Below are positions 5,584-24,395 of a DNA stretch of 36,337 nucleotides, piece after piece. Positions within the stretch are counted from its first letter, which is position 1. Each line of letters opens with the position of its first letter. A program made the position numbers and the translations under genes. The DNA comes from a virus (lineage: Duplodnaviria > Heunggongvirae > Uroviricota > Caudoviricetes). The notes under the pieces are model-generated. The model was given only the letters and a program-made list of their open reading frames with translations. It ran no database searches and was not told the origin of the DNA. The stretch is from IMG/VR virus record IMGVR_UViG_2541047902_000001, one strand, 5' to 3'.

Positions 5584-6365
5584 GCTGCCACCTTCTGCTC
5601 AGTGGCTTTCTGTTTCAGGAATCCAAGAGCTTTCACTGCTTCGGCCTGTGTCAGTTCTGACGATGCGCGAATGTCGCGGCGAAATATCTGGGAACAGAGC
5701 GGCAATAAGTCGTCATTCCATGTTTTATCCAGGGCGATCAGCAGAGTGTTAATCTCCTGCATGGTTTCATCGTTAACCGGAGTGATGTCGCGTTCCGGCT
5801 GACGTTCTGCAGTGTATGCGGTATTTTCGACAATGCGCTCGGCTTCATCCTTGTCATAGATACCAGCAAATCCGAAGGCGAGACGGGCACACTGAATCAT
5901 GGCTTTATGCCGTAACATCCGTTTGGGATGCGACTGCCACGGCCCCGTGATTTCTCTGCCTTCGCGGGTTTTGAATGGTTCGCGGCGGCATTCATCCATC
6001 CATTCGGTAACGCAGATCGGATGATTGCGGTCTTTGCGGTAAATCCGGCATGTGCAGGATTCGTTGTCCTGTTCAAAGTCCATGCCGTCAAACTGCTGGT
6101 TTTCGTTGATGATGCGGGACCAGCCATCAACGCCCACCACCGGAACGATGCCGTTCTGCTTATCAGGGAAGGCGTAAATTTCTTTCGTCCACGGATTAAG
6201 ACCGTACTGGTTGGCGACGATCAGCAATGCGATGAACTGCGCATCGCTGGCATCACCTTTAAATGCCGTCTGGCGAAGAGTGGTGATCAGTTCCTGTGGG
6301 TCGACAGAATCCATGCCGACACGTTCAGCCAGCTTCCCAGCCAGCGTTGCGAGTGCTGTACTCAT
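5580..6365 (-). CDS. bet: Recombinase Bet (Red beta)
   Basis: 261-aa ORF matching lambda Bet; 4-nt overlap with exo. Confidence 0.97.
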
Positions 6366-6370
6366 CCGTT

Positions 6371-6787
6371 TTATACCTCTGAATCAATATCAACCTGATG
6401 GTGAGCAATGGTTTCAACCATGTACCGGATGTGTTCTGCCATGCGCTCCTGAAACTCAACATCGTTATCAAACGCACGGGTAATGGCTTTTTTGCTGGCC
6501 CCGTGGCGTTGCAAATGATCGATGCATAGCGATTCAAACAGGTGCTGGGGCAGGCCTTTTTCCATGTCGTCTGCCAGTTCTGCCTCTTTCTCTTCACGGG
6601 CGATCTGCTGGTAGTGACGCGCCCAGCTCTGAGCCTCAAGACGATCCTGAATGTAATAAGCGTTCATGGCTGAACTCCTGAAATAGCTGTGAAAATATCG
6701 CCCGCGAAATGCCGGGCTGATTAGGAAAACAGGAAAGGGGGTTAGTGAATGCTTTTGCTTGATCTCAGTTTCAGTATTAATATCCAT
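6371..6787 (-). CDS. gam: Gam, RecBCD inhibitor
   Basis: 138-aa ORF matching lambda Gam. Confidence 0.97.
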
Positions 6788-6885
6788 TTTTTATAAGCGT
6801 CGACGGCTTCACGAAACATCTTTTCATCGCCAATAAAAGTGGCGATAGTGAATTTAGTCTGGATAGCCATAAGTGTTTGATCCAT
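6742..6885 (-). CDS. kil: Kil (host cell-division inhibitor)
   Basis: 47-aa reading frame [12 protein letters not shown]... overlapping the gam start, as in lambda; the track ORF begins further upstream. Confidence 0.8.
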
Positions 6886-13722: not shown

Positions 13723-16700
13723 ATGACCACTGTGAATAAAAAGTTAAAAAAAACTGCATCTGGCGCGATTACATGGTCAGTAATTGTTACCCAGATATTA
13801 TCTCCAGTTTCTCTTTCTTTGATTCCGGCAAACAGTTTTGCATCGTCTGATAATAAAGATGTTACGCAAATTTATGCTAGCGATGAGCGTGCAAATAAAG
13901 TGGCCTCATTTGCAGTAAGTGCAGGTCAGAGTCTGGCGAATAATAATGCAAGTAGTTTTGCTGTAAATACTTTATCAACTCAGGCGACAAAAGAGGTCGT
14001 CGATTGGTTGCAACAATATGGCAATGCGCGCATCAAGCTTAATGTCGATAATTCTTTTTCCTTGAAGGATTCATCATTCGACTTTTTATATCCATGGCTG
14101 GATACTCAGGATTATGTGCTATTCAGTCAAACATCACTACATCGTACTGATGACCGTAATCAGACCAATATTGGTTTGGGGATTCGTCATTTCACTCCTG
14201 ATAATGCAATGTTGGGTGCGAATGTTTTCTACGATTATGATTTAAGTCGCAGCCACTCTCGCGCAGGTTTTGGGGTTGAGTACTGGAGAGATTATTTCAG
14301 GCTTGGTGTAAATACCTATTTTGGTTTATCTGACTGGAAGGACAGTCGGGATATTGATGATTATCTGGAAAGACCCGCAAATGGCTGGGATTTTTCTGCT
14401 GAAGGATGGCTACCTGCTTATCCGCAATTAGGGGCATCTATTCAGTTTGAAAAATATTATGGTAAAAATGTCGGATTATTTGGAAGCGATAATCTGCAGG
14501 AAAACCCTTACGCAGTTACTGGGGGAATTTCTTATACACCAGTTCCTCTGATTAAGTTTTCTGCACAGCATAAGCAAGGACAGAGCAACGTTCACGATAC
14601 AACCTTTGGTGTTGAGTTTAATTACCGCCCAGGCGTTTCCCTTGCTGAACAGCTTAGCAGTGACAATGTTGCAGTTATGCGAGAAGTCCAGAACCGGCGT
14701 TATGATTTTGTTGAACGAAATAACAACATTGTTCTGGAGTACAAGAAGAAGCATGCACTGAAAATCAGCTTACCAGAGTCTGTTCAGGGGGATGGCGAAT
14801 CAATCATCCCTGTAACACTGACAATCAACAATGCCAGTGGTGGTATCAAGTCTGTACAGTGGAATGATAGTGTATTCACTGCGGCTGGCGGTAAGATCAG
14901 TGGAAATGGCACATCATGGCAGGTCACTTTACCGGCTTATAAAAGCGAAGGTGTAAATTCGTGGAATGTTGGAGCCACGGTCCAGGATAATAGAGGCAAC
15001 GTTTCCAACTATGCGGTGATGAATATTAGCGTTATTAATAGTGGTGTCTCGACAGCGGATTCTTCTTTTATGTTGGATGGAGATTCATCTCCGACGATCT
15101 CTGCTGATGGTCAATCCACTCATCCAATAGTATTAAGCCTGAAAGACAGTAACGGTAAGGCATTAACCGGACTGGCTGATGACATTGAAATGTCAGTGGA
15201 ATTTACTGCGGATAGCAATAGTGCTCGACAGCGTGAAACGGTAACTGCCCCGTCATTAGGCGCGGTAGAGGAAATCTCTGCTGGTGTATATCGCTCTGTT
15301 CTGACTGCTGGTTCGCAGGCTGGCACAGTACGTGTAACAGCAAAAGTTCAGGGAAAAACCTTTACTTTGAATATTAAGCAGGCAGCCGTTATTGATAGTG
15401 ATGTCTCGACAGCGGATTCTTCTTTTACGTTGGATGGTGATTCGTCTCCGACGATCTCTGCTGATGGTCAATCCACTCATCCAATAGTATTAAGCCTGAA
15501 AGACAGTAACGGTAAGGCATTAACCGGACTGGCTGATGACATTGAAATGTCAGTGGAATTTACTGCGGATAGCAATAGTGCTCGACAGCGTGAAACGGTA
15601 ACTGCCCCGTCATTAGGCGCGGTAGAGGAAATCTCTGCTGGTGTATATCGCTCTGTTCTGACTGCTGGTTCGCAGGCTGGTACGGTACGTGTAACTGCAA
15701 AAGTAATGGATAAAACATTTACTCTCAGTATTAAGCAAACAGCAGCAACAGAACCTGATTCTGAGGTCAGTGCTGTTTTAACCGCTGCACCAGCAGAACA
15801 GGTAGTTGGTTACAATATCAATCTACAACTGGCAGTGAAGGATTCACAAGGAAATGCAATCACTGGTGATAACACTCTGAGCTTTTATGCTCTTAACCAG
15901 GCAGAAGGAGTCGAGTTTGGGGCTGTAACGGAAAAAGACGGTGTCTATAGCGCGACAGTAACTTCAAAACGAGCTGGTAAGATTCGGATCGGTGTTAAAT
16001 CGGGTAGTCACAATTTCTCAGGTATTGAGAAAGAAATCTCCTTTATTGAAGATCGAACACAGTTCGCATTCTCTCGTATTGAAGCCAGTAAAAATAATGC
16101 ATTGGCTGACGGCAAACAACAGAATACGGTGACTTTAAGCCTTGCAGATCGTTTCGGCAATGTTGTGCCCGGTTATGCTGTTACGCTGTCCTTACCTGCG
16201 GGGGTAACTCAAGTTGGTGGTGAACATGCTGTGTCAACTGACGAAAACGGTAATGCTGTTTTTGCGTTAATAAGCTCCACTCCGGGTTCTTACGTGATTA
16301 AAGCTCATGCTGGTTCTCAGATGTCTACTGAGTTAACAGTAACCTTTGCATCAAATATGATCGGAGCTTCACTGTCACTGACGCCTGGAAACAGTAGCTT
16401 AATTTCCAATATTCCTGCTAATGGTAAGGATGCTGCGGTATTGAATGTGCAACTGACAAATACGAATGCGTCGGTCAATGGACAGAAGATTCAGCTCATC
16501 ACCTCATCTGAAAGATTGTCTGTACCGACAAATATCGTGACTGATTCAACAGGGCATGTTTCCGTACCACTTACAACGGTGAGAGCTGGTGAGTATACGG
16601 TGGCTGCACGAGTGACTGACGGTTCCCATAGTGTGGAGTCTGGCAGCGTTAAGTTAACTTTTGTACCAGATGCTGCTTCCGCAGAACTTACTATGAGTAC

Positions 16701-17631
16701 ATCAAAACAGCAGATTGTGGCCGATGGTAGTGAAAGTGCAACAGTGGACATTCAGTTGGTTGATGCCAATAACAATGCGTTTACAGGCGATGTGGATTTA
16801 ACGGTTACACCATCGACGGGAGCATCATTGACCAGTAGTAAACTGCAGTTGGATGCTCATGGACAGGCAACAACGCAGTTCACAGCATCGAAATCAGGCC
16901 AGTACACAATTCAGGCTGAGTATGTTCTAGATGGGAAACGTATAACCGCAAGCAAAAATATTGATGCCGTGACGGATGTGAAGGAGGCTGTGTTGGAGAT
17001 CACATCATCTGCATCTTCGGCTGTAGTGAGCGATACCAACAATCTGATATTTACGTTACTGTTGAAAAGTACGTCAGGCGAAGTATTAAGTGGTCGAGTA
17101 TTGAATATCAAGGCATCTGGGCCGTCCAAATATGGTGCGTTGGTGGTTGATAAAACCACTGTAACGACTGATGAGTATGGTCTGGCTACGGTAAGCGTAC
17201 ATGGTCGAACGGCTGGTTCGTATAAATTAACGGCGACCTTAGATGAACTTGGCAGTGATGTTAGTGAGGTGAAGTCATTCTCTCTGTATGCTGATGAGGC
17301 AAATGGAGTATTGACACTGCATAAAGATGGAGGCTATGACACAGATGATGGTACTCCAGTGGGGGTTTATGCCCGATTTGTTGACCATTTCGGCAATCCG
17401 TTATCTGGTACGGTTGAGTTTTCTGCTGGTAGTGAAGATAGTCCAAACTCTCAACGGGTTAAAATGGAGCCTGCTACAGTAACGTTACACTGGACAGGTA
17501 ATGCAGCCTCGGAGTTCAGCACCTATGAAAGCGGTTATCACTGGATTAAGGCCAAAATAACGAACAGCAAAAATACATATGAGAAAACAATAAGGACTTA
17601 TGTTGTAAAGCTCCCTGAAAAGGATAGTTAA
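13723..17631 (+). CDS. Invasin/intimin-family inverse autotransporter adhesin with bacterial Ig-like repeats (cargo in the ren slot)
   Basis: 1302-aa ORF; signal-like N-terminus; beta-barrel motifs typical of invasin/intimin beta-domains; long run of Ig-like repeats; AT-rich upstream region; own terminator. Confidence 0.8.
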   Translation: MTTVNKKLKKTASGAITWSVIVTQILSPVSLSLIPANSFASSDNKDVTQIYASDERANKVASFAVSAGQSLANNNASSFAVNTLSTQATKEVVDWLQQYGNARIKLNVDNSFSLKDSSFDFLYPWLDTQDYVLFSQTSLHRTDDRNQTNIGLGIRHFTPDNAMLGANVFYDYDLSRSHSRAGFGVEYWRDYFRLGVNTYFGLSDWKDSRDIDDYLERPANGWDFSAEGWLPAYPQLGASIQFEKYYGKNVGLFGSDNLQENPYAVTGGISYTPVPLIKFSAQHKQGQSNVHDTTFGVEFNYRPGVSLAEQLSSDNVAVMREVQNRRYDFVERNNNIVLEYKKKHALKISLPESVQGDGESIIPVTLTINNASGGIKSVQWNDSVFTAAGGKISGNGTSWQVTLPAYKSEGVNSWNVGATVQDNRGNVSNYAVMNISVINSGVSTADSSFMLDGDSSPTISADGQSTHPIVLSLKDSNGKALTGLADDIEMSVEFTADSNSARQRETVTAPSLGAVEEISAGVYRSVLTAGSQAGTVRVTAKVQGKTFTLNIKQAAVIDSDVSTADSSFTLDGDSSPTISADGQSTHPIVLSLKDSNGKALTGLADDIEMSVEFTADSNSARQRETVTAPSLGAVEEISAGVYRSVLTAGSQAGTVRVTAKVMDKTFTLSIKQTAATEPDSEVSAVLTAAPAEQVVGYNINLQLAVKDSQGNAITGDNTLSFYALNQAEGVEFGAVTEKDGVYSATVTSKRAGKIRIGVKSGSHNFSGIEKEISFIEDRTQFAFSRIEASKNNALADGKQQNTVTLSLADRFGNVVPGYAVTLSLPAGVTQVGGEHAVSTDENGNAVFALISSTPGSYVIKAHAGSQMSTELTVTFASNMIGASLSLTPGNSSLISNIPANGKDAAVLNVQLTNTNASVNGQKIQLITSSERLSVPTNIVTDSTGHVSVPLTTVRAGEYTVAARVTDGSHSVESGSVKLTFVPDAASAELTMSTSKQQIVADGSESATVDIQLVDANNNAFTGDVDLTVTPSTGASLTSSKLQLDAHGQATTQFTASKSGQYTIQAEYVLDGKRITASKNIDAVTDVKEAVLEITSSASSAVVSDTNNLIFTLLLKSTSGEVLSGRVLNIKASGPSKYGALVVDKTTVTTDEYGLATVSVHGRTAGSYKLTATLDELGSDVSEVKSFSLYADEANGVLTLHKDGGYDTDDGTPVGVYARFVDHFGNPLSGTVEFSAGSEDSPNSQRVKMEPATVTLHWTGNAASEFSTYESGYHWIKAKITNSKNTYEKTIRTYVVKLPEKDS
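15040..15753. repeat. Tandem duplication (2 x 357 bp) encoding two nearly identical 119-aa Ig-like domains inside the adhesin gene
   Basis: About 300 bp repeated almost perfectly with a 357-bp period (15046 vs 15403). Confidence 0.9.
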
Positions 17632-18555: not shown

Positions 18556-18838
18556 TTTGAGAAAAGCAGCGCGTGGTCGGGAATGCCAGGTAAGAATCCC
18601 TGGCGTATGTAATGGCAATTCTGAAACGTCTGTACTGGCACATATCCGGCTGGCTGGATTGTGCGGTACCGGTATCAAACCGCCAGACCTGATTGCCACC
18701 ATTGCATGTTCTGCCTGCCACGACGAAATCGACCGCCGCACACATTTTGTCGATGCTGCATATGCAAAAGAATGCGCGCTGGAAGGTATGGCGAGAACAC
18801 AGGTTATCTGGCTGAAAGAGGGGGTTATTAAGGCGTGA
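18548..18838 (+). CDS. ybcO: YbcO (DUF1364, putative nuclease)
   Basis: 96-aa frame [23 protein letters not shown]... with conserved Cys residues; start overlaps the ninE end. Confidence 0.8.
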
Positions 18839-19198
18839 ATACCTACAGTATCACATTACCCTGGCCTCCGAGCAATAATCGCTATTACCGCCATAATCGC
18901 GGGCGCACGCACGTCAGTGCAGAGGGGGCAGGCATACCGCGATAACGTCGCCCGAATCATTAAAAACGCAATGCTGGATATCGGCCTGGCTATGCCTGTG
19001 AAAATCCGCATTGAGTGCCACATGCCGGATCGCCGTAGCCGTGACCTGGATAATCTGCAAAAAGCCGCTTTTGACGCACTCACTAAAGCAGGTTTCTGGC
19101 TGGATGATGCTCAGGTCGTTGATTACCGCGTTGTGAAGATGCCTGTTACCAAAGGTGGGAGGCTGGAACTGACCATCACCGAAATGGGGAATGAATGA
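18835..19198 (+). pseudogene. rusA: rusA (Holliday-junction resolvase) disrupted by a +1 frameshift in a G-run
   Basis: N-terminal RusA sequence [31 protein letters not shown] in frame 1 stops at 18943-18945; the rest ([16 protein letters not shown]...TITEMGNE) continues in frame 2; shift at GAGGGGG (18922-18928). Confidence 0.8.
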
Positions 19199-19335
19199 TG
19201 TTTGAGTTTAATATGGCAGAACTTCTTCGCCACCGCTGGGGGCGTCTGCGCTTATATCGTTTCCCCGGCTCTGTTTTGACCGATTACCGAATACTGAAGA
19301 ATTACGCCAAAACACTGACAGGAGCAGGAGTATGA
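19195..19335 (+). CDS. ylcG: YlcG (small DLP12-type protein, 46 aa)
   Basis: [46 protein letters not shown]; start overlaps the rusA stop. Confidence 0.6.
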
Positions 19336-19420
19336 AGTCAGAGATAACAATCAACTAATACTGTTTTGTTGATTTTTGCTTGTAATTGGCGTTCTGGTCT
19401 GAGTTTTGTGGAGTAAGTTG

Positions 19421-19798
19421 ATGCGTGATATTCAGATGGTTCTTGAGCGTTGGGGAGCGTGGGCGGCTAATAATCATGAAGATGTGACCTGGTCGTCCAT
19501 TGCCGCCGGTTTTAAGGGATTAATTCCTTCAAAAGTAAAATCTCGCCCGCAATGTTGTGACGATGACGCGATGATCATTTGCGGGTGCATGGCCCGTCTG
19601 AAAAAGAACAACAGCGATTTGCATGATTTATTGGTGGACTATTATGTCGGCGGCATGACTTTTATGGCGCTTGCACGTAAGCATGGGCGATCTGATTGTT
19701 GGGTTGGCAGGATGCTCCAGAAAGCTGAGGGCGTAGTGGAGGGTATGCTGATGGTGTTGGATCTCCGATTGGAGATGGATGCTGATTGTTCGAAATAA
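19421..19798 (+). CDS. Q: Late-gene antiterminator Q, phage-82/DLP12 QuuD type
   Basis: 125-aa frame from ATG 19421 ([24 protein letters not shown]...) with Cys-rich putative zinc-binding region. Confidence 0.85.
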
Positions 19799-19898
19799 TT
19801 AAAGGAAAAGTTGCTGTCTGATTCTCATTAGTCTAACATTTTAAATGTTGGAATCGCAACGTAGTTATTATCATATAACAGCTTGTTTCCTGATTTAG
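19799..19898 (+). promoter_or_regulatory. Predicted late promoter pR' / Q-utilisation region
   Basis: Position immediately downstream of Q and upstream of a short-transcript terminator; -35/-10 elements not confidently resolved. Confidence 0.35.
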
Positions 19899-19926
19899 CC
19901 AGCCTCCCCAAAGGCTGGTTTTTTTC
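19899..19926 (+). terminator. Intrinsic terminator (tR'-like) downstream of Q
   Basis: Stem CCAGCCT/AGGCTGG with 6-nt loop followed by T7. Confidence 0.75.
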
Positions 19927-19953
19927 TAATAAGTATTATTTCGGGTAGGGATT

Positions 19954-20478
19954 TTATTGTTTAACCCATAATAATTCATTGACATTGAATCCCAACTTTT
20001 GAGCGGTTCGCACATAGTCTGCTTTTACTTTATCTGGAATAGTTGGGGTCCTTGCCAGAATCCATAGGTATTCTCTGTTCGGACCACTGACAAGAGCATA
20101 CTTATACTCATCATCCAGTTTGATTACATTATAGCCACCATAGAAGGGGCCAAAAAACGAAACCTTCAACGCTGCAGTTTTAGTATCTCCAGTAAAGTAT
20201 GCTTTACCTTCGCTCTCGCTCCATTTATTTTTCGTTGGATCGTATCCACGGTTAAGTACACGAATCCCTCCGTCGTTCCGTTTTCCATAAGTAGCGCTGA
20301 CCTGTTCCAGACCACGTTCGAACCGGTTCTCGAGGCGAGCTATTTCATACCACTTTCCGAGGTAGCGGTTGGCGTCAAAATTTGTAATCGGCTGCACACC
20401 TTTAGGTGGTGTCGGGGCCTTACATGCTATAAGAGTGAAAGAGAGTGCAATGCCAGTCAACACAGGCCATAACTTCAT
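19954..20478 (-). CDS. Bacterial lipocalin (Blc-like outer-membrane lipoprotein)
   Basis: 174-aa ORF with lipobox LIAC and conserved lipocalin motifs (NFDANRYLGKWYEIARLENRFERG..., FFGPFYGGYNVI); opposite orientation to the late operon. Confidence 0.8.
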   Translation of the reverse strand: MKLWPVLTGIALSFTLIACKAPTPPKGVQPITNFDANRYLGKWYEIARLENRFERGLEQVSATYGKRNDGGIRVLNRGYDPTKNKWSESEGKAYFTGDTKTAALKVSFFGPFYGGYNVIKLDDEYKYALVSGPNREYLWILARTPTIPDKVKADYVRTAQKLGFNVNELLWVKQ

Positions 20479-20670
20479 AATAAATCCTGTACTTTTGATA
20501 GTTGAGAGTAAGTATGAAAGATAGATGATTACGACCGATCACTTAAAGAACTTTCATACTATATTAGGAATAGTCCATAACAGAAAAATTGTCAGTGATG
20601 ACGCCAGAAAGGCAATTTATTCCGTGCACTACACAGTTTATGTGTTAATGAATTAGTCAAGGGGGAGGAT

Positions 20671-21630
20671 ATGATAAAAAAACCTGTGATTGGAATCAGC
20701 GGTTGTCTGGCCGGTTCTGCTGTTCGTTTTGATGGTGGTCACAAAAGAGCTGACTTTTTAATGGACAAATTAGTGGAATGGGTAACATTCAGACCAGTAT
20801 GTCCGGAAATGGCTATAGGGCTGCCAGTTCCGCGTCCTGCTCTACGTCTTGTGCGCTCGACGCAAGGAAATATACGGATGTGTTTCAGCCACGACCAGAA
20901 TGAGGATGTGACAGAGAGAATGACAGAGTTTAGTCGTTCTTATATGGACAAATTAAAGGATGTATCGGGGTTTGTGGTTTGTGCTAAATCTCCCAGCTGT
21001 GGCATGGAGCGCGTGCGTGTCTATGATGAAAATGGTAATCGAGGTCGTAAAGATGGAGTGGGACTATTTACGAGCACTTTGATGGAAAAGTTTTCCTGGC
21101 TACCGGTTGAAGAGGATGGGCGATTACATGATCCAGTGCTTCGTGAGAATTTTGTTGAAAGAGTTTTTGCTTTGCATGAGCTCAATCACCTTTACAAGGA
21201 GAAATTATCAAGAAGAGAGTTATTAGCTTTTCATAGTCGTTATAAGCTTCAGTTGTTGGCGCATAGTCAGGCAGGCTATAAAGATATGGGACCATTTGTG
21301 GCTGCAATACACGAGTGGGCGGACCTTGAATCATACTTTGAGGTGTATCGTGATAAGCTGATGGCGATTCTCAGAAAACCTGCATCACGTAAAAATCACA
21401 CGAATGTGATGATGCATATACAGGGGTATTTTAGTAACTACTTAAGTACACGCCAGCGTAAAGAGTTGAGCGAGGTTATACTTAACTATCGTTCTGGCAC
21501 ATTACCTCTTCTTGCGCCGTTGACTCTGCTGAAGCATTATCTGGGTGAGTATCCTAATGATTACTTGCTTACACAGAATTACTTCGATCCCTATCCGGAC
21601 GAACTGGCTCTAAGACTGATGGTAAATTAA
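20671..21630 (+). CDS. DUF523/DUF1722-family protein (YbgA/TudS-like, Cys-rich)
   Basis: 319-aa ORF; N-terminal Cys positions GISGCLAG, RPVCPEM, CAKSPSCGMERV resemble the DUF523 fold; C-terminal extension. Confidence 0.55.
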   Translation: MIKKPVIGISGCLAGSAVRFDGGHKRADFLMDKLVEWVTFRPVCPEMAIGLPVPRPALRLVRSTQGNIRMCFSHDQNEDVTERMTEFSRSYMDKLKDVSGFVVCAKSPSCGMERVRVYDENGNRGRKDGVGLFTSTLMEKFSWLPVEEDGRLHDPVLRENFVERVFALHELNHLYKEKLSRRELLAFHSRYKLQLLAHSQAGYKDMGPFVAAIHEWADLESYFEVYRDKLMAILRKPASRKNHTNVMMHIQGYFSNYLSTRQRKELSEVILNYRSGTLPLLAPLTLLKHYLGEYPNDYLLTQNYFDPYPDELALRLMVN

Positions 21631-22124
21631 TTGTATGCGATATCATCCAAAAGGATGAGTTCCTGCATGCAGGATATTTACAATCGTAAAAACTACACTA
21701 TGATACCCAGAGTGTCAGTTTGTATAAAAACTCTGTTTACGCTGAAGAAACCATTGAGATGCAACTTAAAGTTGGTAAACATGCCAGTCAAAATATATAA
21801 TATTATGATTCCACGCAGCTATATATAATATAACAGATTGGTTTAATAATTTGTCTTTGTGAGTTAAATACATAATTTTATACTTGTGATGCAATGAGAT
21901 TTTCCTTATTGTTGAACTGGCGAATATTGATTTTCCACCTATACTTACTTGGTGTAACCCCAATGATATCAGGTGGATAATATGCCATACATATGTTCTA
22001 TCATTTTGGTGTTGAACTCGTTTGATGTCCGAATTGGTAAAGAAGATATTTTATTTAAAAAAGGAAGTGCTGTTCTCATTGATTAAAATTTAAAAGATTT
22101 TTTTCATCAAATATAGATCATGCA

Positions 22125-22706
22125 ATGATCGTAGATGTTGAAGAGAAAACAGTTAATGATTTCTTTAAAAGCAACACACTCTCACCTTTTTCTGTAAGAA
22201 GGTTTTATCCGGCATACTTGATGGTGGAATGTGAAGATTTTTCATTGTTAAAGAACTTGATTGCATGCTTGAATTGTGATGGCAGAACTGTGGATTTTGT
22301 TAGAAATCAAATATCACTTGCATGTCTTGCTATCTTATCTTCAGAGAAAATAGTGCAAAGTTTTTTATTTGGATGTCTTAATAGTTTAGGAAGTAAAGTT
22401 AAGGCTATTATTCACACGGATATATCTGCAGCATGGAGACTTTGTGATATATCTTCAAGACTGTATCTGAGTGAAAGTCTGTTAAAAAGAAAATTAAAGC
22501 ACGAAGGCTTATCATTTAGTAAGTTAATTCTTGAAGAGCGAATGGTGATGGCGGAAAGGTTATTAAGCTACAATTTATATTCTGTTGGAAAAGTTGCTGA
22601 GATATGCGGTTATGAAAACACGTCATATTTTGTAAGTGTTTTCAGAAGATATTTTTGTGTTCCTCCCCATCAATATTCATCAAGATTTTTTTTAGAAAAG
22701 ACATGA
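22125..22706 (+). CDS. AraC-family transcriptional regulator (C-terminal HTH), probably the downstream part of a frameshifted gene
   Basis: 193-aa ORF with AraC-type HTH; very AT-rich; a 34-codon ORF with strong SD at 21982 ends at 22086 in another frame. Confidence 0.6.
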   Translation: MIVDVEEKTVNDFFKSNTLSPFSVRRFYPAYLMVECEDFSLLKNLIACLNCDGRTVDFVRNQISLACLAILSSEKIVQSFLFGCLNSLGSKVKAIIHTDISAAWRLCDISSRLYLSESLLKRKLKHEGLSFSKLILEERMVMAERLLSYNLYSVGKVAEICGYENTSYFVSVFRRYFCVPPHQYSSRFFLEKT

Positions 22707-22899
22707 TGTAACGTGATGCGTTTTAATGATTTTGTAATTTTCGTATTTGATAATTGTATGATGCTTTCAGCTACGCCAGAATAATCGCTGGCGTTTTTCT
22801 TTTTGAATAGATGTTCAAGCCTTACGCTAATGTAACTTCTATACCTTTCCTCTTCGTTCCGAACCGTGTACACCATCCGTTATTTGCGGAGGTGAGGCT

Positions 22900-23115
22900 A
22901 TGAAATCCATGGATAAGTTAACAACGGGCATTGCCTACGGCACCTCCGCAGGCAGTGCTGGCTACTGGTTTTTACAGCTGCTCGATAAAGTCACGCCCTC
23001 ACAGTGGGCAGCAATAGGTGTGCTGGGTAGCTTGGTATTTGGCCTGCTGACGTACCTGACAAACCTTTATTTCAAGATTAAAGAAGATAAGCGCAAGGCT
23101 GCGAGAGGTGAATAA
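22900..23115 (+). CDS. S: Class II holin (pinholin), phage-21 S21 type with dual-start motif
   Basis: 71-aa [32 protein letters not shown]... matching recalled S21; two TM segments. Confidence 0.9.
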
Positions 23116-23612
23116 TGCCTCCATCATTACGAAAAGCCGTTGCTGCTGCTATTGGTGGCGGAGCAATTGCTATAGCATCAGTGTTAATCACTGGTCCAGG
23201 TGGTAACGATGGTCTGGAGGGTGTCAGCTACATACCATACAAAGATATTGTTGGTGTATGGACTGTATGTCACGGGCATACAGGAAAAGACATCATGCTC
23301 GGTAAAACGTATACCAAAGCAGAATGCAAAGCACTCTTGAATAAAGACCTTGCCACTGTCGCCAGACAAATTAACCCGTACATCAAAGTCGATATACCGG
23401 AAACAACGCGCGGCGCTCTTTACTCATTCGTTTACAACGTGGGTGCTGGCAATTTCAGAACATCGACGCTTCTTCGCAAAATAAACCAGGGCGATATCAA
23501 AGGCGCATGTGATCAGTTACGTCGCTGGACATATGCTGGCGGTAAGCAATGGAAAGGTCTCATGACTCGTCGTGAGATTGAGCGTGAAATCTGTTTGTGG
23601 GGTCAGCAATGA
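23115..23612 (+). CDS. R: SAR endolysin (lysozyme), phage-21 R21 type
   Basis: 165-aa ORF with N-terminal signal-anchor-release segment ([20 protein letters not shown]) and lysozyme domain; matches recalled R21. Confidence 0.9.
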
Positions 23613-24101: not shown

Positions 24102-24395
24102 TTATTGTGAGCAATAGACACGCGCTTCCAGCGGAGTATAAATGCCTAAAGTAATAAAACCGAGCAATCCATTTACGAATGTTTGCTGGGTTTCTGTTTT
24201 AACAACATTTTCTGCGCCGCCACAAATTTTGGCTGCATCAACAGTTTTCTCCTGTCCAATTCCCGAAACGAAGAAATGATGGGTGATGGTTTCCTTTGGT
24301 GTTACTGCTGTCGGTTTGTTTCCAACAGTAAACGTCTGTTGAGCACATCCTGTAATAAGCATTGCCAGAGCGGCAGAAAACAACATTTTTTTCAT
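24102..24395 (-). CDS. bor: Bor lipoprotein (serum-resistance)
   Basis: 97-aa frame from MKKMLFSAALAMLITGC... matching lambda Bor. Confidence 0.9.
   Translation of the reverse strand: MKKMLFSAALAMLITGCAQQTFTVGNKPTAVTPKETITHHFFVSGIGQEKTVDAAKICGGAENVVKTETQQTFVNGLLGFITLGIYTPLEARVYCSQ

Follow-up and report, generated by a model that had tools for sequence, protein, structure and literature searches.

RudS proteins, fusions of a TudS domain with a DUF1722 domain, take 4-thiouridine (s4U) off transfer RNA (tRNA) (Jamontas et al., 2024; PMC11417400). They remove s4U8 by means of a [4Fe-4S] cluster, with DUF1722 as the tRNA-binding domain, and RudS_vir, encoded by gp66 of phage 1H12, reduces the s4U content of tRNA in E. 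coli (PMC11417400). The lipocalin gene blc, too, has been described as phage cargo, being a moron in more than half of 19 gut lambda phages (Mathieu et al., PMC6969025). Both genes lie side by side in the DNA analysed here, a viral stretch of 36,337 nucleotides (nt) (IMG/VR record IMGVR_UViG_2541047902_000001; hereafter ‘the window’), where they are found with an AraC-family regulator gene between the antiterminator gene Q and the holin gene S. We consider it quite likely that these genes represent a widespread lysogenic-conversion cassette in the Q–S slot of a DLP12/lambda-type prophage, whose core is the divergent blc2/rudS pair. All three family assignments of an initial annotation, made from the sequence alone, were upheld by domain annotation and, as it had said, none of the three is a lambda gene.

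The gene rudS (20671–21630, plus strand) encodes 319 amino acids (aa) and was assigned to the [4Fe-4S] tRNA 4-thiouridine desulfidase family by its domains, residues and orthologue. The Cys-rich DUF523/DUF1722 protein of the initial annotation is readily recognized: PF04463 (2-thiouracil desulfurase, DUF523/TudS) covers residues 7–149 (2e-40), PF08349 (DUF1722) covers residues 192–309 (4e-40), and the TudS structure 6Z92 was the sole PDB match. The three cluster ligands listed for RudS_vir and RudS_ST (Cys12, Cys44 and Cys110; Table 1 of PMC11417400) are all present in the window protein as C12 (ISGCLAG), C44 (RPVCPEM) and C110 (SPSCGME) and, by motif spacing from these cysteines, its E46, R55, S107 and S109 match the catalytic E51, R60, S111 and S113 of RudS_KT. 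The DUF523 assignment was right, yet the substrate is predicted to be tRNA, because RudS_vir of Escherichia phage 1H12 (H3V29_gp66), to which the protein has 93% identity, lowers tRNA s4U. The 319-aa protein is thus a RudS, its predicted substrate being s4U in tRNA as shown for this close relative.

The second core gene, blc2 (19954–20478, minus strand), encodes a 174-aa outer-membrane lipocalin lipoprotein of the Blc subfamily, on which Pfam, NCBIfam and structure matches agree. The Lipocalin_2 domain (PF08212) was detected at 7e-44, the NCBIfam Blc model NF007786 gave 316 bits against a cutoff of 267, and E. coli Blc structures were matched at 3.5e-69. The N-terminus (MKLWPVLTGIALSFTLIAC, then KAP) has the lipobox LIAC with Cys19, and the Lys at +2 is not an inner-membrane retention residue, all of which agrees with the Blc-like lipoprotein proposed earlier for the opposite strand. 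By the +2 rule Blc2 would be sorted to the outer membrane, and we envisage its export as an outer-membrane lipoprotein, like the membrane morons Bor/Iss and Lom. The literature search for a link of lipocalin with light regulons returned nothing usable.

The window carries a second allele group of the rudS cassette, with 90% DNA identity to the 1H12 type across the cassette. The ratio of nonsynonymous to synonymous substitution rates (dN/dS), computed between window-type and 1H12-type alleles (dS 0.2–0.37; 0.2–0.3 for blc and rudS), was 0.06 for blc and 0.11 for rudS, like the 0.07–0.12 obtained for Q, S and the lysis gene R; among intact regulator alleles it was 0.25. Both blc and rudS are under purifying selection. 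Of 80 viral loci, 79 have an intact blc open reading frame (ORF), and one Blc protein (WP_000780581.1) is identical in three unrelated strains.

With carriers defined by at least 80% query coverage, the cassette was found in 979 of 5426 complete E. coli genomes (18%) and in 12 phage records, including plaque-forming gut lambdas. Gene order is Q+ blc− rudS+ araC+ S+ R+ in 74 of the 80 IMG/VR loci, and each of the three cargo proteins has its own PHROG family, with function listed as unknown. The cassette is therefore common and also largely known already, in that blc has been listed as a moron and a phage RudS has been assayed. Within the literature searched, we found no paper treating the three cargo genes together, or lipocalin with YbgA and prophage (the phiv142-3 paper, considered as a candidate, proved unrelated to the cassette), nor did we find there the joint capture of blc and rudS or the separate gain and recurrent loss of the regulator, which are described below. 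The tRNA-modification literature states that ‘E. coli lacks RudS’. While this is true for K-12, it fails for the 18% of complete genomes that have a prophage copy close to the assayed enzyme, and therefore near-UV growth delay, bursts of guanosine tetraphosphate (ppGpp) and s4U-based tRNA stability may vary by lysogeny. The cassette also appeared on two short ‘Candidatus Nanosynbacter’ metagenome-assembled contigs (L064, L074) at 93–100% protein identity, with Q-blc-rudS on one contig and rudS-araC-S-R on the other; its occurrence in a Saccharibacteria-binned genome almost certainly reflects misbinning of the public genome.

The window is a lambda-like prophage integrated beside ybhC and matches the chromosome of E. 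coli TUM2330 at 100% identity. Its genes run int-xis-exo-bet-gam-kil-cIII ... cI-cro-cII-O-P, nin region, Q, cargo, S-R-Rz, bor/iss, terminase, and head and tail genes, and its late-regulation and lysis backbone (ybcN-ninE-ybcO-rusA-ylcG-Q ... essD-rrrD-rzpD-bor) is of the type of the K-12 cryptic prophage DLP12. Three ORFs had been placed between Q and the lysis cassette, and that is where they are: on the left lies an antiterminator Q of QuuD/DLP12 type (19421–19798, plus strand, coordinates of the Prokaryotic Genome Annotation Pipeline (PGAP); Pfam Phage_antitermQ, 2.5e-51), and on the right a holin S of EssD type (22900–23115, plus strand; Pfam Phage_holin_2_1, 2e-35). The cassette itself spans 19781–22888 and fills the slot of the nmpC/ompD porin in DLP12-type phages. 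Homology to the OmpD-porin phage ev243 stops at 19780 and restarts at 22889, 11 nt 5' of the S start codon, and DLP12 has the same build, with nmpC as the cargo of its Q–S slot. The cargo thus sits, relative to both ev243 and DLP12, as an insertion between conserved phage genes, and the use of the Q–S interval as a cargo slot holds for this prophage. Its base composition is deviant as well, with a GC content of 0.32 for the regulator, 0.44 for blc and 0.43 for rudS, compared with 0.48–0.49 for Q and S and 0.48 for the window as a whole.

As to the source of the pair, we surveyed chromosomes by scanning one genome per species and found RudS homologues of 66–76% identity in Citrobacter, Enterobacter, Leclercia, Klebsiella, Kluyvera, Pectobacterium and other genera. 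A divergent lipocalin gene lies at most 3 kb upstream of rudS in 41 of 63 close enterobacterial loci, and in most of these, as on Enterobacter and Leclercia chromosomes, the linked lipocalin is 78–82% identical to phage Blc2. The order blc− merR+ hiuH+ rudS+ occurs in 36 chromosomal loci, and in two Citrobacter loci blc and rudS are directly adjacent, as in the phage; pairing of rudS with a MerR gene had been noted for Salmonella ORF319 and E. cloacae (PMC11417400). Homologues of the AraC gene, of Q or of holin were absent from the vicinity of rudS in the 63 enterobacterial loci. From these arrangements we conclude that the phage probably captured blc and rudS jointly from such a chromosomal locus and then lost the MlrA-like MerR gene: blc2-rudS would have been lifted as a unit from an enterobacterial locus in which blc diverges from merR-hiuH-rudS, with MerR left behind. 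The AT-rich regulator gene, we further conclude, was probably acquired separately, because the chromosomal loci are without an AraC homologue and the regulator is far more AT-rich than the pair. Citrobacter braakii ATCC 51113 has two rudS copies on different contigs (L011, L012), both 75% identical to the phage protein and neither with a linked blc.

All cargo genes lie 3' of a strong tR'-like intrinsic terminator, found by a terminator scan ~100 nt past the Q stop codon (19897–19927, plus strand), which consists of a 9-bp GC-rich stem and T7; its predicted stability of −14.9 kcal/mol (z = −3.76) was equalled by 0 of 200 shuffles, and its minus strand is without a T tail. A second intrinsic terminator (22773–22804, plus strand; −11.3 kcal/mol, z = −2.56), from the same scan, separates the regulator gene from S. 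The post-Q spacers of this cassette (L083) and of DLP12/ev243 (L006) follow Q genes that are ~91% identical and are themselves unrelated, their sole similarity being a ATATAACAG block (19873–19881, plus strand) followed by GTTT, TTAG and the hairpin. This conservation between two spacer types makes the ATATAACAG block a candidate −10 element of the late promoter pR' or a candidate Q-utilisation (qut) site. The divergent blc/rudS intergenic region (20479–20670) is presumed to hold the promoters of the pair, and Shine-Dalgarno sequences stand ahead of both genes (AGGA for blc, GGGGGAGGA for rudS). Alignment of this intergenic region between phage and Citrobacter revealed no conserved promoter or operator, and inspection of the sequence by eye for a LexA box (CTGT-N8-ACAG) gave no match.

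In lysogens, blc and rudS would be expressed from their own promoters. RudS would hold its [4Fe-4S] cluster on Cys12, Cys44 and Cys110, use Glu46, Arg55, Ser107 and Ser109 in catalysis and convert s4U8 in host tRNA to U, while its DUF1722 domain would grip the tRNA anticodon arm. The lysogen would in this way gain a desulfidase activity foreign to K-12-type strains, with fewer near-UV tRNA crosslinks and a milder stringent growth delay as the expected, and presumably beneficial, effect; RudS expression does shorten the growth delay of E. coli under ultraviolet A (UVA) (PMC11417400). During lytic growth, Q-modified polymerase from pR' would pass the terminators ending at 19927 and 22804 and read rudS in sense and blc in antisense.

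A late transcript of this kind raises the alternative that RudS chiefly serves the phage. As part of the late operon the gene would be read once Q had antiterminated transcription, and s4U would be erased from host tRNA during UV/SOS-triggered induction, letting late proteins escape the s4U-dependent near-UV arrest and ppGpp burst and giving a larger burst size, in the manner of an auxiliary metabolic gene. The location of rudS, on the late-transcript strand between the tR'-like terminator and S, favours this alternative, but blc is antisense to the same transcript, which fits expression of the pair in lysogens, and the divergent intergenic region has been kept with its own ribosome-binding sites. 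The eased UVA growth delay might also be counted in its favour, although UVA and the UVC/SOS signal for induction are distinct stimuli. The phage copy is without the MerR regulator that accompanies chromosomal rudS, and the dN/dS of rudS is as low as that of the lysis genes, both of which also favour the alternative. On balance we regard a primarily phage-serving role as unlikely. We would similarly assign a low probability to the idea that blc-rudS is a co-selected near-UV/photo-oxidative stress module in which rudS, placed behind pR' and freed of MerR, erases host-tRNA s4U at induction. If it were true, late protein synthesis would be uncoupled from s4U-triggered stringent arrest, the phage would encode an auxiliary eraser of a tRNA modification, and a prophage would set the UVA response of roughly every fifth E. 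coli strain apart from that of K-12. The common chromosomal origin of blc and rudS hints at a part for the lipocalin in the same stress response.

Several points count against lysogenic conversion as the role of the cassette, the explanation we prefer. RudS_vir was less active than the other RudS enzymes tested despite good protein levels (PMC11417400). Loss of s4U can destabilise some tRNAs, as the tRNA-modification literature records, so any net benefit to the host is a presumed one. The linkage of blc and rudS could be a simple co-transfer of neighbours without shared function. The rudS ORF is intact in 80 of 80 viral loci, a count that is biased because the loci were collected with RudS as the query. 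Finally, of the own terminators and promoters that might be expected of a moron, the terminators are present, but a sigma-70 consensus scan of the cassette region returned 12 matches against 10.2 expected from shuffled sequence. The two best (10/12; 21677–21704 and 21772–21801) lie in the AT-rich spacer 5' of the regulator gene (21631–21981; GC 0.32), and since the total is no better than chance we name no promoter except the candidate ATATAACAG block.

The third cargo gene (21982–22706, plus strand) belongs to the PatE/Psr family of YdeO-like AraC regulators and is a pseudogene in the window. It had been introduced as an AraC-family regulator in AT-rich DNA, of which the family (HTH_18 at 1e-13 and HTH_AraC at 6e-9, a double helix-turn-helix in the ORF 22125–22706) and the base composition stand, whereas the 193-aa ORF proved to be the 3' portion of a 243-codon gene, disrupted here, with its start at 21982. 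Relative to the intact allele of phage IdasGreatGrand, the window gene has three lesions: a TAC-to-TAA change at 22084–22086 (codon 35), a T8-to-T7 deletion at 22098–22104 and an A5-to-A4 deletion at 22696–22699 that shifts the frame at the 3' end. With one nonsense codon and two frameshifts, it is not an intact, translatable PatE/Psr gene, and PGAP marks it ‘frameshifted’ in the identical TUM2330 chromosome. Intact 243-aa alleles are found in phages IdasGreatGrand (98% DNA identity) and 1H12/ev087 (90%).

A shortened product might nonetheless be made from this gene. The ORF 22125–22706 retains both helix-turn-helix motifs and could give a 193-aa, N-terminally truncated protein acting as a constitutive regulator made up of the DNA-binding domain only, and AraC proteins of this build, such as MarA and SoxS, are active. 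Versions of 195 aa form a 623-member cluster of called proteins, but the varied truncation points and IS1 replacement in other copies are better read as loss of function than as selection for a short form. The gene has gathered three independent lesions, and the internal ATG at 22125 has no Shine-Dalgarno sequence in front of it, while the true start at 21982 is preceded by AGGTGGA. We therefore think it improbable that the truncated protein is a working regulator.

Comparison of copies showed that the regulator is recurrently lost, through T6–T9 slippage, nonsense mutations and IS1. Among the 76 viral loci in which a regulator was detected, 60 encode it at full length (237–248 aa) and 13 have it shortened at five points (34, 36, 44, 52 and 109 aa); in two further loci the gene is disrupted or replaced by elements of the insertion sequence (IS) family IS1, so that ~20% of viral loci have a shortened or IS1-replaced regulator. 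The two IS1 cases are IMG/VR copies: L152 has a complete IS1 (insA/insB; 6061–6836) in place of the regulator gene, and in L138 an IS1-family transposase ORF begins at the regulator gene start (from 6382) and is followed by a large transposase-like ORF, possibly IS66-type. One set of complete genomes (H6, H7) has an IS200/IS605 tnpA inside the cassette. Lesion-site probes of the complete genomes counted 254 intact T8 alleles, 235 T7 alleles with TAC, 50 T7 alleles with TAA (the window allele) and ~110 1H12-type alleles, which are without the homopolymer; about half of the window-type regulator alleles are thus out of frame, and PGAP confirms both intact and frameshifted states. Tracts of T6, T7, T8 and T9 were all seen at 22098–22104 and the equivalent site (L086–L165). 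Slippage in the tract is recurrent, because T7 alleles sit on at least two to three rudS haplotypes, each nearer a T8 neighbour than each other. As a hot spot of slippage the poly-T tract might work as an on/off switch, or it might be no more than a weak point during decay; for the window copy, the added nonsense codon points to decay over reversible switching. Repeated loss of the PatE/Psr-like regulator marks it as a dispensable or costly part of the cargo.

The homologues of the regulator are a small family centred on E. coli. Alignment of the intact allele covers positions 1–234 of the 253-position YdeO model, and its score of 127 bits falls below the 348-bit equivalog cutoff, so the regulator is not YdeO itself. 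It is 53–54% identical (235 aa) to Sakai ECs_0287, a 247-aa AraC-like gene of prophage Sp1 that is probably the orthologue of PatE (Z0321). The P0018 context next to paoD had pointed to PatE, and identity was assessed against Sakai ECs_0287 instead. The intact allele is also 39–40% identical to PsrA (ECs_1087, named psrA in PMC13502914) when PsrA is extended to 237 aa at its likely true start. The psrA gene occupies the Q–S interval of prophage Sp4, just 5' of the tRNA genes ileZ-argN-argO, which makes the Q–S slot a recurrent home of such regulators. The annotated 195-aa PsrA ORF (Sakai ECs_1087; L010, 18678–19391) can be extended in frame by 42 codons at its 5' end, to MVVVCSVIMV...; the extended protein has the N-terminus conserved in the family, its alignment to the YdeO model begins at position 1, and the true start codon probably lies 5' of the annotated one. 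PatE and PsrA/B activate gadE and hdeA and repress type III secretion (PMC10877973). The third gene would accordingly have been a separately gained activator of this type, able to turn on gadE/hdeA acid resistance and dead here.

Returning to the enzyme, the initial annotation had likened it to TudS-like thiouracil desulfurases and suggested activity on thiolated nucleobases; in such a reading the protein would salvage free bases and would not act on tRNA. The TudS domain does have the same cluster ligands, and in a uracil auxotroph fed 4-thiouracil RudS_vir gave the shortest lag among the RudS proteins (PMC11417400). Shortening the lag was all that it did, however: no RudS sustained growth on thiouracils as TudS does and none allowed growth on 2-thiouracil, whereas every RudS, RudS_vir included, lowered tRNA s4U, and DUF1722 binds tRNA (PMC11417400). 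The free-base role is thus not borne out as the function of RudS, and we consider it highly improbable for the window protein.

That the whole cluster is decaying, functionless, untranscribed hitch-hiking DNA is scarcely credible: the three regulator lesions, the frameshift of rusA in the same prophage, the viral loci with a shortened or IS1-replaced regulator and the near-equal numbers of frameshifted and intact T8 alleles would suit it, but blc and rudS are intact in 79 and 80 of the 80 loci and evolve under constraint like Q, S and R, all catalytic residues of RudS are kept, an identical Blc recurs in unrelated strains and plaque-forming phages carry the cassette. The selection data contradict functionless decay for blc and rudS; it is true of the regulator in the window copy. 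The initial annotation had allowed for untranscribed remnants, and one of the three genes is a remnant, because the AraC gene is a pseudogene, while blc and rudS, with intact ORFs and dN/dS of 0.06 and 0.11, do not look like remnants.

Elsewhere in the prophage, a 1302-aa inverse-autotransporter gene with an intimin/invasin-type beta domain (13723–17631, plus strand) lies in the nin region between P and ybcN and is a second, far bigger piece of cargo. A Bor-family lipoprotein annotated as Iss (increased serum survival; 24102–24395, minus strand), directly 3' of Rz, is another membrane moron. The rusA gene (18835–19198, plus strand) is frameshifted according to the annotation of the identical TUM2330 record, its 3' part forming a 93-aa ORF (18917–19198); apart from this frameshift, the remainder of the prophage looks complete. 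Four small cassette ORFs (20525–20656, 21631–21828, 21766–21963 and 22670–22876) were treated as non-coding because they had no Pfam match where tested. An Rfam scan of 19300–23300 gave sub-threshold matches only, the best of them on the terminator hairpin, and no known RNA family.

Compared with described systems, the closest is phage 1H12, in which rudS likewise lies between blc and an AraC gene in the Q–S slot and RudS_vir has the same 319-aa TudS-DUF1722 architecture with the same Cys12, Cys44 and Cys110. K-12 itself encodes YbgA (b0707), of the same family as the DUF1722 part and 48% identical there, but YbgA is without the catalytic TudS domain, and its chromosomal Blc (b4149) shares the fold and family of Blc2 but only 60% identity. 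The blc-merR-hiuH-rudS locus of Enterobacter, Leclercia and Citrobacter chromosomes has the divergent blc/rudS arrangement in common with the phage. In contrast to that locus, the phage has neither the MlrA-like MerR regulator nor the hydroxyisourate-hydrolase-like gene (hiuH), has an AraC gene instead, and the intergenic DNA of its pair is unrelated to the chromosomal counterparts. The regulator resembles PatE and PsrA/PsrB of enterohaemorrhagic E. coli O157:H7, which are likewise ~240-aa, YdeO-like, AT-rich and prophage-borne, but it forms a distinct branch, is inactivated in the window and has neither type III effector nor pch genes linked to it there. As to the slot, the nmpC/ompD moron of DLP12 and related lambdoid phages and stx of the Shiga toxin (Stx) phages occupy the same Q–S position on the same backbone, and in the nmpC/ompD type the cargo begins with a gene on the opposite strand, as it does with blc2 in the window. 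The cargo of both is unrelated to that of the window, as is the post-Q spacer except for the ATATAACAG block, and the general view of phage cargo slots is left unchanged by this cassette.

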